Below, one piece after another: positions 4,821 to 33,261 of a stretch of 64,000 nt of DNA. Source of the stretch: Escherichia phage rV5_ev158. Numbering within the stretch: the stretch's first letter is position 1; every line of letters starts with the position of its first letter. The DNA lies in the sequence record LR694611; one strand, 5' to 3'. The notes beneath the pieces are model-generated. The model was not told the origin of the DNA, made no database searches, and saw only the letters and a list, made by a program, of their open reading frames with translations. Both the position numbers and the translations under genes were made by a program.

Positions 4821-5012
4821 ATGACACTAAAGTTAACAATTCCAGACAGCTTTTCAGAAGACTTTATCCCAGAAATGATGGGTAAGATGCGATCATTGCT
4901 TGATCAGATCGAGGAAGCTGTTTGGGAAGACGATGCTGTAGTGGCTAACGAGCTGGTAGATAAGTGTAAAAGTATTATTGATGCAGTTGAAGAATACCAC
5001 GGAGGTTTTTGA
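4821..5012 (+). CDS. hypothetical protein
   Basis: ATG 4821 preceded by GGAGA; 63 aa. Confidence 0.4.
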   Translation: MTLKLTIPDSFSEDFIPEMMGKMRSLLDQIEEAVWEDDAVVANELVDKCKSIIDAVEEYHGGF

Positions 5013-16513: not shown

Positions 16514-17563
16514 ATGAATTTAACACCTCGCAGCACCATGGTACACGGCATGAAAGAGAAACAGAACGGTTTCGAACCTATGAGTAATAAAATGTTTGGT
16601 ATGCCGGGCGGTATCATGGAAACATACAGCTACCCAACACCTGTTGTTGACCACGTTCTTTATATCGACGATTTGGAAGACCTGCAGGATCATATGTCTC
16701 GCCTGCAGACGATCCGTATGGCTCAGCCTGAAGAAAGCATTCGAGTGATCATTAACAGCCCTGGTGGTTGCGTGCACATTGCGATGGCTTATCTGCAGGC
16801 ATTCCGCGAGTCTCAGGCAAGCGTTGTTGCACATGCGGAAGGGATGTGCTGCTCTGCGGGAACAATCTTATGGCTGGGTTGCAAAGAACGTACTGTGGCT
16901 CCGGACACAGAGTTTATGTTCCACTACTATCAAGGTGGCACTTATGGTAACGGTGTGAACATGAATACTCAGGTCAGCTACTGGAAAAAACGTTTTGAAC
17001 GCCTGATCGAAAAATACTACGGTGGGGTGCTGACAGAAGATGAGATCGCATCCATCACAGCTGGTGGCGAAGTGTGGTTGGACGGAGAAGAGCTGGCAGC
17101 ACGCACTGGAGCTATTATTCTGGATGAAGGCAACATACAACGCATCCAGAACGGACAAAAACCGAAAAAGCTTCTGGCAAAAGGTGATGAAGAAGGCGTG
17201 TTAGGTGAAGCAGGTCTTCCGGAGATTCACCAGTGCACATCTTTAGATGAGTTAGTTCATGCTGTTGAATCTGCAAAAGCGGGTGGTTCGAAAGGTGATG
17301 TTCACACTGTGTTCCTGAATCTGCAGATGGAAAGTGGCGAGACCGTCAGAATTGCCCTGAGTGAGATTACTTCAGAAGATCTGCAGCGATTCTCTGTCGT
17401 TGAACTTCAAGACATTCTGTCCCAATTGAAGACAACCCTGAACGGCGGTGAAGAGGTTAAGGTAAAAGATAAGACTCGCAAGCGTCTGGTGGACAATATT
17501 ATTAAAACAGCAAAAGAGCTCAATGAAAAAATCCTGGGTGCAGGAATTGTCGAAGAAGCTTAA
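16514..17563 (+). CDS. ClpP-family serine peptidase-like protein with C-terminal extension
   Basis: INSPGG and GMCCSAG (Ser) blocks, then His and Asp in ClpP order; about 150 aa extra C-terminal region. Confidence 0.6.
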   Translation: MNLTPRSTMVHGMKEKQNGFEPMSNKMFGMPGGIMETYSYPTPVVDHVLYIDDLEDLQDHMSRLQTIRMAQPEESIRVIINSPGGCVHIAMAYLQAFRESQASVVAHAEGMCCSAGTILWLGCKERTVAPDTEFMFHYYQGGTYGNGVNMNTQVSYWKKRFERLIEKYYGGVLTEDEIASITAGGEVWLDGEELAARTGAIILDEGNIQRIQNGQKPKKLLAKGDEEGVLGEAGLPEIHQCTSLDELVHAVESAKAGGSKGDVHTVFLNLQMESGETVRIALSEITSEDLQRFSVVELQDILSQLKTTLNGGEEVKVKDKTRKRLVDNIIKTAKELNEKILGAGIVEEA

Positions 17564-27969: not shown

Positions 27970-28275
27970 ATGGCTAAATCTAAAGTTGAACTGTTCACCT
28001 CTCTTCCTTCTGACACTGCAGAGCGTGATCGCCTTCGCAAAACAATCGAAGAACTGGTAGAACTCCAACTTCAGATTAAAGATCTGAAAGATGCCATTAA
28101 GGATATCATTCTCGTTGAGAAGCAGGATCACCTGTATTCTCCTAAATTCATCAAATCTCTGGTGGCTACCGAGTTCGATATTCGCTATGAGGCTGAAAAA
28201 CGTCGCGCTAAAATCGAAGAAGAGGTTGAGCACATGTCTGAGGCAGACATTCTGTTCAAACGCTCTGTAGAATAA
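27970..28275 (+). CDS. hypothetical coiled-coil protein
   Basis: 101 aa, charged heptad-like; followed by terminator. Confidence 0.5.
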   Translation: MAKSKVELFTSLPSDTAERDRLRKTIEELVELQLQIKDLKDAIKDIILVEKQDHLYSPKFIKSLVATEFDIRYEAEKRRAKIEEEVEHMSEADILFKRSVE

Positions 28276-29329: not shown

Positions 29330-29538
29330 TCAACACACATGCATCTGAAGAGACATCCGAAGGAGTGACCATATGTCCCTTGGATGAGCCAGTTAAAGAG
29401 GAAAACTTAGATTCTGAGGACTCTTCATCTTCGTCCCAGACAGATCCTGAGGCTGATGACCTGACGTGGGAGGACATCGTAGATATCTGGTTCTCTATTA
29501 TGCCTGAGCACGAAGAGTTCAGAGGTGGTAGACTATGA
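29326..29538 (+). CDS. small highly acidic, Ser-rich protein
   Basis: 70 aa; DSEDSSSSSQTDPEADD. Confidence 0.4.
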   Translation: MINTHASEETSEGVTICPLDEPVKEENLDSEDSSSSSQTDPEADDLTWEDIVDIWFSIMPEHEEFRGGRL

Positions 29539-29659
29539 AGCACCGAGCCCACACAGGTTCCTCATGCTAAAGCATGGCCTGAAGAGGCAAACGTGTATAA
29601 TTCTTGTGCATTGGAACGTATAAAACCCTGTTCACACTCTCATTCCCAGAGGAGATTTT

Positions 29660-29875
29660 ATGAAGATAGAGATATTTGGTGGAGCTGACAACACTCGTGG
29701 CCTGATTTACCTTGAATTCGATGAATCATACCTGCCAGAGGTGTTAAATATAGACTCTGTTGCTGAGGCTTTGGGAGTAAACCCTAAAGAACTCCACTCT
29801 TGTGCTGAGATCGATGGTTGGGAAGAGACCATGAACATTGATTTCAGTGAAGTAGAGGATGAACCGCTAGACTGA
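29660..29875 (+). CDS. small acidic protein (MKIE start)
   Basis: 71 aa; last plus-strand gene before the ORF-free zone. Confidence 0.45.
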   Translation: MKIEIFGGADNTRGLIYLEFDESYLPEVLNIDSVAEALGVNPKELHSCAEIDGWEETMNIDFSEVEDEPLD

Positions 29876-30004
29876 CACACAATCAGCTGCCCGGCTAAAG
29901 TGCTGGAAGCGCACCTATAACACATCTTTCAACTAAATTTCCTACCACCACAATCACTTACCTACCACACATGACTGTTTGCTTGTTTAGTGAGCAGTCA
30001 TGCC

Positions 30005-30033
30005 TTGACATTCTTGCCTATCCTGATAAAATT
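30005..30033 (+). promoter_or_regulatory. sigma70-like promoter TTGACA-16-TAAAAT reading into ORF-free DNA
   Basis: -35 at 30005-30010, -10 at 30027-30032; no ORF of 60 aa or more on either strand for about 2.2 kb downstream. Confidence 0.45.
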
Positions 30034-31382
30034 AAGTTCTTCTCTTTTCTTTTACCGAGTAATTCGGGTTTTCTGTTCTCTTCGGTTTGAAGGGGTATGG
30101 AGATACACCTGAGTGAACAGGGTGAACAACCGAACCATTGGCTATGGCATTAGCATGGCGAAGCGGACGGGTGACGAAAGAGGGGCCGGAGGACACCAGT
30201 CACTGCCATATGATATATGGGTGATAACCTGAAGAGTCTGAATAAGTGTTTAAGTACCAGTCAGAGGAAAAGGTGAATGGTAGCCGAAGGGGGATGGGGG
30301 GTTTCTTGTATCTTTAATTTGTATATTATGTATACACTTGTAAACCAATCTCATCTGAATCTGTTTACCACACAAAGCGGATAGAGACAAATATCACCTA
30401 TTAAACTTGAATTATTTATAGAAAATACCACAACACCACTTAAGTCTTTGATTTTACACACAAATCCTACAGATATTCAACCTCCATATTTAACATACTT
30501 GTAACATATTCCATACTCTACCTGTCTGATCAATTTCCCCAACTACATTCTCATATTTTCCCTGTCTGTACTACCCCTGCCCCGCCGGGAGTCCCGTCAT
30601 ATCTGGCTTTCCAGCAAATATCACACCCACAAATATCATTGCCTGAAGAGGGTTTCATCCCATAATACCTGCCTTACCTGAAGAGCGCTTCATACACCAC
30701 GTAAATTTTTTAATTGACCTCCCCCTGCCCCGCCGGAGAGGTTGGCTTTTCCCACACAGACCTGAAGAGTCAGCCAGAAATATCTGAACAGGCCCAATTC
30801 TACCACGATTTTGACCTGACCTACAGGGAGGCCCGAAGGGTCTAGCTTTCAGCTAGAGTCCTTGCAGGACCTACAGGAGCGCTGCCAGGCGGACGGAATG
30901 GGAATACTTCTCATTCTTATAACAATTCTCAAATATCGAGACAGTGAGAGAAATTAATAGGCCAGGCCGTTCACACAGTGGCACAACATTTGCAACCTAT
31001 TTTGGGTGGATGAATGAGAATACCTATCATTGTGAGAACTGTTATCATTACGGGCAATTTAACATAATACCCATTATGCGCACCACCGGCGATACATACA
31101 GGGATTGATAACATGGGTTACTGTTTACGCACATAACAATTATATTTCTTACTATTTGTGTGGGATATAGTTAGCAGCCGATAGATTAGATATTAACCTG
31201 CAGACTTCTGACCGTCCAGACGTCTAAACGCCCACACACCAAGGATTATACATACACTCCTGAATGTAAACAGGGCCGCAAAAATGCTACCATACAAGCT
31301 TGTAAATTTTTCATGCAGCACTTGACAAAGAGGAGAAAAACTTGTCTGACATAATGTGACCTAACTGACACAACATGACACT

Positions 31383-31471
31383 TTTACACACCTATTAGTT
31401 TACACACTGGATTGTTTACATTCCTGATTGTTCACATGCTAACCATTTACATGATTGACTGTTTACACACC
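31383..31471. repeat. iteron-like array, six copies of (T/A)GTT(T/C)ACA spaced 14-16 bp
   Basis: TTTTACACACC, AGTTTACACAC, TGTTTACATTC, TGTTCACATGC, CATTTACATGA, TGTTTACACACC; further TGTTTAC copies near 31121, 31265 (inverted), 31871, 31924, 31973. Confidence 0.6.
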
Positions 31472-31479
31472 GATAATCA

Positions 31480-31773
31480 GCCATGCCATTCGTTTGCATG
31501 AAAACAATTAACAAGATAACAATCGACAAGTTAATAATCTTTCGCTGGCTATGCCAGGTGACTAGGTCACCCCTTCGGGCGTTCCTATGACATAATATAA
31601 AAGCAGGGCAACTATTAGCAGATCTATAGTTGCCTTGCTTGTTATGTCATGATTAACTAAATACAAGGCAACTATGATCTGATTAATAGTTTGCAGACAA
31701 ACTATCACGGGGGTGATGGTTACTGCTTTTATATTATGTCGCGACTCCGTCGCGCCATGCCATTCGTTTGCAT
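31480..31773. repeat. 20 bp perfect direct repeats flanking a palindrome-rich 274 bp module
   Basis: GCCATGCCATTCGTTTGCAT at 31480-31499 and 31754-31773; between them a ~66 bp imperfect palindrome (31586-31652, centre AGATCT), GCAACTAT/ATAGTTGC inverted repeats and hairpin CGCGACTCCGTCGCG. Confidence 0.6.
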
Positions 31774-32380
31774 AGTTGCCTTATTGTTACGAATAAAACA
31801 ATTGCATTGTTAATGATTTCTTATCTTTCTCTTAGTCATCTAATGATTCCAGTCAGTATAGTAATGTACAGTAAACATTAGACGACTAAAGATTTCTCTG
31901 TTTATGATAACTCATCTTGATAATTTCGGACTGTTTACGAAAAATGTTGACACCTGAGCTGATTTATGTTATGCAGTTTACACGAATAATTATTTTATGC
32001 AGGTATTGACTATTCCGTTATTCTGTGGTTGGAATAAATACTTTGCAGGCTATAGAATGGCGTGCGTACGTGAATTCTGAGATCTGGCGGCTATAGTTAT
32101 ACTCGATTTTTCGCGTAGAACACGCTTTCGATGCTGTGTAAGTGTATGACTTATAAAGATTTTTAGTTGTTGACAAGATATTGGAGATGTGCATCAGGTT
32201 AAAATTTGTGCAATAGCGGCATTACGTGCACTTTTGGGAGAGAAAACGGGTAAAAATGGACTTGCTACCACACAATGAAAAATTATGCAATAGTTATTTT
32301 CCATGTATATTTGTACAGTATGTGGGATTGATGGCTAGTCAATTATTCCACTTGCCAGGTAGGGCCGTTTATGGTAGGAG

Positions 32381-32404
32381 AAGAGCAGACAAAAAGAAAG
32401 GGGC
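32381..32404 (-). terminator. Rho-independent terminator for the minus-strand block
   Basis: AGGGGCCTAAGCCCCT hairpin; on the minus strand it is followed by a T-run (plus-strand AAAAAGAAA upstream). Confidence 0.6.
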
Positions 32405-32433
32405 CTAAGCCCCTTGATAATTCAGTTAAAAAA

Positions 32434-32853
32434 TTATAATGATTCGTATATTTCAAAAATCCGATTTGCCAGGTCGTTACGGTAGCGGAATTTTTCCTCA
32501 CGTTTGATCATAAGATCTTTATAGCCGTACTCTTTAAGCACTTCATTAACTTTATGGCGGCATACTTTCATATTATCCTGCGCGTCACCAATAAATCTGT
32601 TGCTATGGTGCATGGCTTTAATTTCTTCTTCCAGGACCAGGGCAACTATGCGGACCGGATCAAGCTGATAGGCGGTAACATCCATGCGGCATTGTAAACG
32701 GCTTTTTACGTCTGCCACCGGATATACTGCAACCTCTTCCCCGTCAACATTGATAATAATTAGTTTACCATCGATTTCGAATCCTTTCGCCGCCGGACCG
32801 TGACAAAAAGCGTTATCAAAGCTATATGCCGGATTATTAGATTTAATGTTCAT
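32434..32853 (-). CDS. hypothetical protein
   Basis: 139 aa; last gene of the minus-strand block. Confidence 0.5.
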   Translation of the reverse strand: MNIKSNNPAYSFDNAFCHGPAAKGFEIDGKLIIINVDGEEVAVYPVADVKSRLQCRMDVTAYQLDPVRIVALVLEEEIKAMHHSNRFIGDAQDNMKVCRHKVNEVLKEYGYKDLMIKREEKFRYRNDLANRIFEIYESL

Positions 32854-32997
32854 GGTGTTTTTACCTCTTAGTTAATTTTCTTACAACTTCCCTTCAAAAA
32901 AGAATATAGCAAAACTGCCGATCCCTGTCAACCAGGGATAGCATAATTTTTATGTGATCAAGGGGCTTTATTGCCCCTGACCATGTAACTTGTTGTA

Positions 32998-33261
32998 TTA
33001 TTTGTTGCTCATCCAGTTTTCCCAAGCTGCCTGATAATCTGCCTCACTACGGCGGATCTCTTCTTGCTCTTCAAGGCGGATCTCTTCTTCCAGGTACCCC
33101 AAGATGTCAGCCTTTTTAGTCTGGCGTAGCATCCAGTCATCTTTTTTGCGAGTGAAGATCTTATAAGCTTTCTCGCAAACCTCTTTTTTGCTACCTTTCT
33201 GGACTTCAAGAACACGATAAGCCATATATTGAACTAATTTGAGCTGATCAAGACGTTTCAT
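32998..33261 (-). CDS. hypothetical protein
   Basis: 87 aa, charged. Confidence 0.45.
   Translation of the reverse strand: MKRLDQLKLVQYMAYRVLEVQKGSKKEVCEKAYKIFTRKKDDWMLRQTKKADILGYLEEEIRLEEQEEIRRSEADYQAAWENWMSNK

Follow-up and report, generated by a model that had tools for sequence, protein, structure and literature searches.

Iteron-type and palindromic origins of replication are well described, as in the lambda origin, which combines iterons, an AT-rich tract and a palindrome, and in the palindromic oriL and oriS of herpesviruses. A comparable arrangement is found in Escherichia phage rV5_ev158 (sequence record LR694611), in a 64,000-nt stretch that we call the window and to whose positions all coordinates refer unless another record is named. 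Here two exact 20-bp direct repeats bracket a branched palindrome next to the direct terminal repeat (DTR). Six iterons (31383-31470) are followed, past the left repeat copy (DR-L), by an A/T-rich tract (31500-31536) and then by the palindrome; iteron number varies between relatives, and there is one copy per genome. Unlike the iteron-type origins, the locus has no annotated initiator gene, transcription converges on it instead of diverging from it, and its palindrome is branched and flanked by direct repeats. The comparisons reported below show, at the level of sequence, that a conserved DNA element with a constrained structure, present once per genome, lies next to the terminal repeat. Judged from its context, a function in the start of replication or in terminal-repeat processing is most likely.

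The processing of concatemer junctions in the T7 group is a second point of reference. Phages with short DTRs of the T7 type must duplicate the repeat, and a hairpin form of the DNA has been seen in T7 infection (PMC4281155). Similar to these phages, rV5-like phages have a T7-like DNA polymerase and primase-helicase (PMC3606486) and a short exact DTR, which measures 459 bp here by homology. Copy-number-variable arrays of short repeats lie directly outside the repeat boundary, as in the T7-like fPS phages, and the palindrome, 242 bp from the DTR boundary, could give a snap-back hairpin. Unlike the T7 group, however, rV5-like phages are 138-kb myoviruses with host-type promoters, and the element lies on the DTR side that opens the left genome end. 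It is also far larger and branched (~150 bp, three inner arms) and carries its own flanking direct repeats, and phage FV3 lives without it.

Conceptually, the closest described region is 'Repeat Region 3', or the injection stop signal region, of phage T5. It is untranslated, straddles the terminal-repeat boundary, is better conserved than the neighboring ORFs, and contains nested direct and inverted repeats and palindromes (bioRxiv 10.1101/866236). The gene-free gap of 2.5 kb that holds our element is likewise conserved at 0.9 or above, two variable zones apart, and where T5 has DnaA boxes, the diverged relative L059 has three perfect ones. In contrast, the T5 repeat is ~10 kb long and carries genes, there is no sequence similarity, and the window has no DnaA-box cluster. 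No genes lie between the end and the element in rV5_ev158, and a stop there would therefore expose nothing. To our knowledge, two-step injection has not been described for rV5-like phages.

In architecture only, the element also recalls the inverted terminal repeat of a parvovirus, adeno-associated virus (AAV), in its size (~145-150 nt), in an outer stem that closes two or three inner arms, and in the conservation of structure and not of sequence. AAV, however, is single-stranded, and its element sits at the very ends, twice in inverted orientation, where it is processed by the Rep nickase, whereas the element here is internal (>650 bp from the end), single-copy and part of a double-stranded genome. 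AAV-type palindromes are reported to be unstable in E. coli via slipped misalignment (PMC11754738).

Results

Direct repeats flank a compound palindrome

A previous, sequence-only reading of this DNA had reported identical copies of the 20-bp repeat GCCATGCCATTCGTTTGCAT bracketing a palindrome-rich module of 274 bp. Both copies, DR-L and the right copy DR-R (Table 1), are present with 0 mismatches. The window holds no third copy even at 3 mismatches, 0 of 100 shuffles gave two copies, and no further copies of the repeat, of the 18-nt arm described below or of the dyad were found in the remaining 74 kb of the 138-kb genome. Both repeat copies occur in nearly all of 15 aligned relatives. The 274-bp module is as described in this phage, but its length is not fixed, with repeat spacings of 227-323 bp in relatives.

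Within the module, that reading had noted a ~66-bp imperfect palindrome, repeated GCAACTAT/ATAGTTGC inverted pairs and a GC hairpin, all of which are there. The palindrome occupies 31588-31649, with arms GCAACTAT (31608-15) and ATAGTTGC (31626-33) around the spacer TAGCAGATCT; the GCAACTAT/ATAGTTGC pairs recur, and the hairpin GCGAC-TCC-GTCGC follows further right. A perfect 18-nt long-range inverted repeat had been missed. It closes the whole core by pairing 31589-31606 with 31723-31740. Dyads of the type CAACTAT-N10-ATAGTTG number three (centered near 31621, 31681 and 31711, hence 60 and 30 bp apart) and not one, and seven half-site-like copies are concentrated within 180 bp. The half-site GGCAACTAT itself occurs six times in the window against 0.44 expected, with four of the six within 31607-31780. 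Secondary-structure prediction, which the same reading had proposed as a check, gave a strong fold for the core as single-stranded DNA (z = -10.2, with z values of -7.9 to -10.2 for single-strand folding). As RNA the core folded with z = -8.7 and -7.6 on the two strands.

Table 1. Positions of the repeats, the palindrome and their neighbors in the window
Feature	Position	Strand	Evidence or variation
DTR, present once as at a concatemer junction; listed for context	30888-31346		Homology to Gotham and HdK5
TGACAY(AA) short repeats, four copies in ~10-bp phase, abutting the right DTR boundary	31347-31381	plus	Alignment, enrichment; copy number varies among relatives
Six (T)GTTTACA-type iterons, 15-16-bp spacing	31383-31470	plus	Repeat search, alignment; number and sequence vary among relatives
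DR-L, left copy of the 20-bp direct repeat	31480-31499	plus	Kept in nearly all relatives; base 7 polymorphic (C/A)
Hypervariable spacer with AACAA/TTAAC repeats, A-rich (31500-31536), and GC mini-hairpin cassette (31537-31580)	31500-31585		Conservation falls to 0.3-0.7
Compound palindrome of cloverleaf or Y type, with outer arms at 31589-31606 and 31723-31740; dyad 1, 31601-31640; dyad 2, 31664-31694; small hairpin (dyad 3), 31700-31721	31589-31740		Repeat search, folds
GC hairpin GCGAC-TCC-GTCGC abutting the outer stem; counterpart of sister-family hairpin H0	31741-31753		Sequence, fold, sister alignment, covariance model
DR-R, right copy of the 20-bp direct repeat	31754-31773	plus	Kept in all relatives examined
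Lone GGCAACTAT half-site overlapping the end of DR-R	31772-31780	minus	Motif count

Compensatory changes in a sister family

A gene for a 139-aa protein adjoins the gap on its right side, and its homologue in Phapecoctavirus, of the subfamily Stephanstirmvirinae, always lies near the record ends. DTRs in this sister family are also short, at 329 bp in phage Schickermooser and 342 bp in a Justusliebigvirus (PMC12210895). Between the homologous gene and the DTR, ~200 bp from the latter, we found a compound palindrome (z = -7.2) in members comprising Phapecoctavirus, Justusliebigvirus, and Klebsiella and Citrobacter phages; its left two-thirds are 72-81% conserved in Justusliebigvirus and in the Klebsiella and Citrobacter phages. 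A consensus of 49 pairs and a covariance model were built from seven distinct sequences. Compensatory (double-sided) changes were present in 13 of the 49, compared with 6.5 +/- 1.6 in shuffles (0/500 reached 13) and 0-4 in slid controls, and the AT-rich outer stem has been re-paired four times. Paired cells make up 98.5% of the alignment, and G.U occurs in 2 of 339, a near-absence that is as expected of a DNA palindrome constrained on both strands. Selection on intrastrand pairing in the sister family is thus demonstrated, as read from its substitutions.

Applied to rV5_ev158, the sister covariance model gave a single full-length match at 31589-31768 on the minus strand, covering model positions 1-166 with 39.7 bits and an E value, from a rough calibration, of about 1e-7. 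No second match was found in the window or the rest of the genome. The minus strand is the orientation expected from the order of gene and DTR. Read from the gene toward the DTR, both families present the GC hairpin, the 5' arm of the outer stem, the small hairpin, the larger arm or arms and the 3' arm of the outer stem, ~200-290 bp from the DTR. The small hairpin has nearly the same sequence in both, AACCATCAC-CCCC-GTGATAGTT in the window and AACCATCACCGATAGTT in VEcB. By these measures of sequence and order, the window core is homologous to the element in the same place in another subfamily.

A diverged, uncultured relative, IMG/VR contig L059, was reached via the 139-aa gene; its protein is 91% identical, and its non-coding DNA is largely unalignable with the window. 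The outer stem in the same place pairs at 17 of 17 positions (GACATAATAACGCTGAG/CTCAGCGTTATTATGTC, vs GACATAATATAAAAGCAG/CTGCTTTTATATTATGTC in the window), and the small hairpin keeps its CCCC loop on a re-paired stem. L059 also has its own direct repeat, TATGCAACGATAACATGGCGC, on both sides of the element with a spacing of 243 bp; it has diverged from ATGCAAACGAATGGCATGGC, the other strand of the window repeat. L059 therefore has the repeat bracket with both copies changed together, which makes the bracket ancestral. The three perfect DnaA boxes of L059 (TGTGGATAA) stand in direct orientation within 40 bp (4845-4884 of the contig), ~490 bp beyond the element. No cluster of such boxes was found in the window or the other loci checked, and DnaA boxes are not enriched in the window. 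The L059-type element gave no matches among GenBank phages.

Presence, absence and variation within Vequintavirus

In sequence searches the surroundings of the repeats are 99.9% identical to Escherichia phage rV5_ev168, in whose record window position 1 is base 74127. Matches were obtained to 119 records of the phage collection, nearly all labeled Vequintavirus, which was the best-represented genus in every search. Every matching Vequintavirus record but FV3 has, at minimum, the conserved core and DR-R. Across 19 relatives the core hardly varies: its few substitutions are confined to the dyad spacers of 10 bp, to the apical region and to the half of dyad 2 that is degenerate, and A135-type genomes have a 32-bp insertion exactly in the apical loop of the long hairpin. 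This substitution pattern fits a constraint on half-sites and stems; no covariation was seen within the genus.

Comparison with related genomes for the module between single repeat copies had been suggested by the sequence-only reading, and FV3 does show a single repeat without the module. Between the iteron-bearing left flank and the right flank, its locus has one repeat copy and nothing else, and the sister covariance model did not find the element there. Only the two FV3 records were matched in one piece by a query spanning the FV3 junction. The most similar relatives of FV3 (SYGMH1, YP-6, isim and others) have an insert of 230-340 bp at this junction, and the single FV3 copy has A at the variable base, as is typical of their left copies. 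Because its closest relatives all carry the module, we read FV3 as a deletion or as a loss in cloning or assembly. The simplest reading is one repeat-to-repeat deletion, natural or during cloning or assembly of the palindrome, and not an ancestral empty site. A different defect is seen in phage V18 (locus L008), in which DR-L and the iterons are missing and the core is kept, with a poly-A run at the junction (around 2467-2501 of that locus). The V18 record is 129 kb and labeled circular, and may reflect assembly collapse around the terminal region.

Genome context of the element

The repeats sit in a gap of ~2.5 kb (roughly 29876-32434) without a credible ORF, which also contains the DTR. The gap is a convergence point, entered from the left by genes of the plus strand and from the right by genes of the minus strand. 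It carries no annotated feature in the reference record and appears as a 'non-coding' box in the rV5 genome paper, whose search for an origin by skew found only changes tracking transcription direction (PMC3606486). The DTR was placed in rV5_ev158 by homology. Phage Gotham has repeat_region annotations at 1-459 and 136567-137025, whose identical copies map to the DTR position of Table 1, and the first and last bases of the HdK5 record fall on the same two window positions. DTR sizes of 458/459 bp are given in the literature (PMC6563267, PMC7471380), and many other records open within a few hundred bases of the DTR region.

From left to right, the order is DTR, TGACAY repeats, TTTACA iterons, DR-L (starting 134 bp past the right DTR boundary), the A/T-rich hypervariable spacer, the compound palindrome, the GC hairpin and DR-R. 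Conservation among 14 relatives is at least 0.9 over the whole gap except at 30800-30880 and 31347-31585, each of which adjoins one DTR boundary. TGACAY repeats, TTTACA iterons and dyad half-sites are all locally enriched; TGACAYAA has 4 copies in 31347-31950 vs 0.05 expected, and the enrichment of the iterons has a P value of about 4e-7. The spacer exists in at least three unalignable types among relatives.

Small hairpin cassettes were observed on both sides of the DTR. The 44-bp cassette of three GC mini-hairpins in the spacer is present or absent depending on the relative, and an identical copy lies ~2 kb away, inverted, in IMG/VR contig L022 (1164-1207), suggesting a small hairpin module that shuffles. 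Just beyond the left DTR boundary (30812-30880), direct copies of GACCTACAGG(G/A)AG enclose a hairpin cassette of ~50 bp. The window, Alma, EduardKellenberger and CM1 have this cassette; in FV3 and slur16 a single repeat copy stands without it, and other relatives have a different one. This is a smaller-scale version of the pattern of the main module, an indel between direct repeats. In Shigella phage CM1 (locus L014), the sequence of the DTR end (window 31300-31381) appears twice, at 1825-1908 and 2348-2430, 523 bp apart, and phage I29 has ~600 extra bases in the DTR region. The extra sequence in either phage is a true tandem duplication around the DTR or a repeat that was assembled twice.

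To the left of the DTR, ~800 bp of gene-free DNA (29980-30800) is essentially 100% conserved in 14 relatives, above the level of nearby genes. A near-consensus plus-strand sigma-70 promoter (TTGACA-16-TAAAAT with TG, 30005-30032) reads into this block, which has no Rfam match and could be an unannotated RNA or another cis-acting block. The G+C-rich 14-mer CCCTGCCCCGCCGG forms a direct repeat within it (30575-30588 and 30723-30736, 148 bp apart, 0 expected). The 9-mer CCTGAAGAG has 7 copies in the window vs 0.48 expected; five plus-strand copies (29578, 30228, 30642, 30677 and 30761) cluster in or beside the gap left of the DTR, and the 9-mer also follows the distal repeat copy in L059 (4373-4381).

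Two genes near the gap deserve mention. The 139-aa gene (32434-32853, minus strand), whose product has no Pfam domain, is ~88% identical in Phapecoctavirus, in the other subfamily, despite unalignable adjoining non-coding DNA, which suggests exchange or strong conservation of an end-proximal gene. On the left, a 101-aa protein (27970-28275, plus strand) is 100% conserved in the genus and has homologues across Vequintavirinae. It gave no Pfam match, is labeled 'transcriptional regulator' or 'double-stranded DNA-binding protein' in some records, and is a possible binder of the repeated motifs. The 101-aa homologue also served to seek the corresponding region in other genera of Vequintavirinae, but gene order was not kept, the homologue lies near DNA ligase, and the loci were uninformative.

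Searches for known elements

Rfam 15 gave no match at E <= 1 for window positions 29500-33000 and nothing relevant in five related loci, and a tRNA scan of the whole window returned none. Pfam found no domains in six flanking small proteins, and for that reason we name no candidate binding protein among them. A promoter scan gave none convincing aimed at the module: a TTGACA at 31322 lacks a -10 element at the proper distance, and the candidate -10 varies among relatives. The only Chi site of the window, at 17060, is far from the gap. No match to the element was obtained in E. coli genomes. In the plasmid database there was one match, a 137.6-kb record, probably of a phage genome misfiled as a plasmid, whose alignment spans 86% of the query region. 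Pattern scans of IMG/VR and metagenomes for the dyad, the repeat junction and the repeat-hairpin-stem junction yielded a handful of vequintavirus contigs and chance matches. Neither an RNA-seq study nor a description of the element turned up in searches of the literature. A resemblance to Xer/dif sites (shared TATATTATGT) was dropped, as inspection by eye showed no contiguous 11-6-11 site and no CATAA-N6-TTATG Xer core.

Discussion

We favor, at a probability of roughly 0.45, a reading in which the 20-bp repeats are the conserved flanks of an old, single-copy, cis-acting, structure-forming DNA element with a role at the DNA end, set in a gene-free end-control region. The element would comprise the cloverleaf-type compound palindrome and the adjoining GC hairpin, 200-290 bp inside one DTR copy. 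It would act as DNA, not RNA, through intrastrand folding, with a hairpin or cruciform that arises by extrusion from supercoiled DNA or on a single strand during replication, and the two repeat copies and the dyad half-sites would be putative protein binding sites. Near the left end, such a structure may have an origin-like function, as the site where the T7-type helicase-primase and polymerase enter or prime; alone or combined with this, it may aid re-synthesis of the terminal repeat when concatemers are cut. The iterons, the A/T-rich tract, the phased repeats at the cut site, the DnaA boxes of L059 and the T7-like replisome form a context that points to DNA-end metabolism. Since direct repeats flank the palindrome, the module should be prone to precise deletion by slipped mispairing, with FV3 as an outcome. 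A cruciform-forming origin core had been among the proposals of the sequence-only reading. That proposal survives: the selection on intrastrand pairing in the sister family and the adjoining iterons and AT-rich stretch agree with it, and we consider a cruciform or origin-type reading plausible.

Several observations weigh against a role at the DNA end. FV3, a viable isolate, lacks the whole palindrome. Should its record be right, the element would be dispensable or redundant under laboratory conditions, which argues against a sole origin or an indispensable packaging signal. Converging transcription units are an unusual place for an origin, and no gene for a binding protein or initiator was identified, the flanking small proteins having no Pfam domain. 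Within the Vequintavirus type, compensatory support for the outer stem and the small hairpin comes from one diverged contig, L059, the core being near-invariant in the genus. The covariance model partly rewards any AT-rich compound palindrome, and self-matches of the family on the reverse strand reach 20-31 bits. For rV5_ev158 the DTR position derives from homology, and any functional role of the element is putative.

Rho-independent terminators placed face to face would offer another account, an insulator that keeps transcription out of the terminal repeat or packaging region. The minus-strand hairpin 31640-31601 with its T-rich tail would stop leftward transcription, and the plus-strand hairpin 31700-31721 with its own would stop rightward transcription. 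A terminator scan flags the latter, followed by ACTGCTTTTA. In Murica and Alma, two independent GenBank annotations, the only ones on the element in the records examined, label the equivalent of dyad 1 a minus-strand terminator. The rV5 authors had expected bidirectional terminators between genes 163 and 164 and found none (PMC3606486), and an insulator would agree with dispensability in FV3. Both dyad 1 with its TTATATTAT tail and the plus-strand hairpin, however, fit the criteria for such terminators loosely, the plus-strand T-run being 5 nt away from its stem, and both lie at least 650 bp from the nearest gene end. The converging genes have a strong terminator of their own (32398-32415) right after the last minus-strand gene, 650 bp away, and no credible promoter feeds the module. 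The 18-bp long-range stem, the three dyads with a common half-site and the co-varying repeats would be left unexplained, and the AT-rich outer stem and inner hairpins of the sister family co-vary without U-tracts. On balance an insulator seems unlikely. We rate a structured, cloverleaf-like non-coding RNA of ~150-180 nt, made from the gene-free gap with the palindromes as RNA helices, as distinctly improbable. It could draw on the strong RNA folds of both strands, on the compensatory changes in the sister family and on most non-Watson-Crick cells being wobble-compatible on the strand running from DTR to gene, including those of window dyad 1 and the small hairpin; the count behind that preference, ~6 cells vs 2, is too small and the cells are non-independent. 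DNA is favored over RNA because pairing is almost purely Watson-Crick (G.U in the 2 of 339 cells noted above), no Rfam family matches and no promoter is convincing. The ends also lack a convincing terminator, the element folds equally well on either strand, and the conserved direct repeats lie outside the fold.

Protein binding to double-stranded DNA could explain other parts of the locus. In an operator array for a phage DNA-binding regulator, the three dyads, the lone half-site and the 20-bp repeats would be protein sites and the hairpin potential a by-product of dyad symmetry, in keeping with invariant half-sites around variable 10-bp spacers, with the distances of 60 and 30 bp between dyads and with the clustering of seven half-site-like copies in 180 bp. 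Yet the motifs occur nowhere else in the 138-kb genome, so that nothing would be regulated elsewhere, and no gene adjoins the sites. Nor does dimer symmetry explain an outer stem of 18 bp that pairs across 116 bp and has been re-paired in L059 and four times in the sister family; we think an operator array improbable. The insertion footprint proposed by the sequence-only reading, a small mobile or integrated element whose 20-bp repeats are a target or att-core duplication, is very unlikely. FV3 does have the look of an empty site, with left flank, one repeat and right flank, and smaller hairpin cassettes between short direct repeats come and go in the DTR flanks. However, this only empty site is nested among module-bearing relatives, the module being present in all other lineages including the closest relatives of FV3. 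Each genome has a single copy, E. coli genomes have none, and the sole plasmid-database match is the 137.6-kb record. The bracket in L059 has co-varied repeats and is ancestral, the core is homologous to the same-place element of another subfamily, and the element has no terminal inverted repeats. A recombination or resolution site, a further proposal of that reading, found no positive evidence: no integrase, resolvase, invertase or other recombinase is named in the annotated genomes, a result that concerns annotation only, with most genes hypothetical. The terminator, RNA, operator and mobile-element explanations each cover part of the anatomy, but not the compensated long-range stem, the co-varying repeats and the sister family.

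For rV5-like phages, no origin of replication or packaging signal has been defined, and we know of no account of how large myoviruses regenerate exact terminal repeats of 330-460 bp. The present analysis adds a discrete, evolutionarily constrained, structure-forming element of ~165 bp beside the DTR in at least two subfamilies, with FV3 as a natural deletion allele. Part of the literature on the genus concerns phage therapy and biocontrol. Because direct repeats flank its palindrome, errors of assembly and cloning can be expected to concentrate at the module, and the neighborhood of the module shows where the physical genome ends lie in assemblies opened at an arbitrary point. A broader and more doubtful proposal is that rV5-like and phi92/phAPEC8-like myoviruses share an undescribed class of cis-acting cloverleaf DNA elements, flanked by co-evolving direct repeats and located immediately inside one terminal repeat, a structural switch that would start replication at the end, prime DTR regeneration, or both. 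If true, this would represent a mechanism for maintaining short DTRs in large myoviruses that is distinct from the proposals made for T7.

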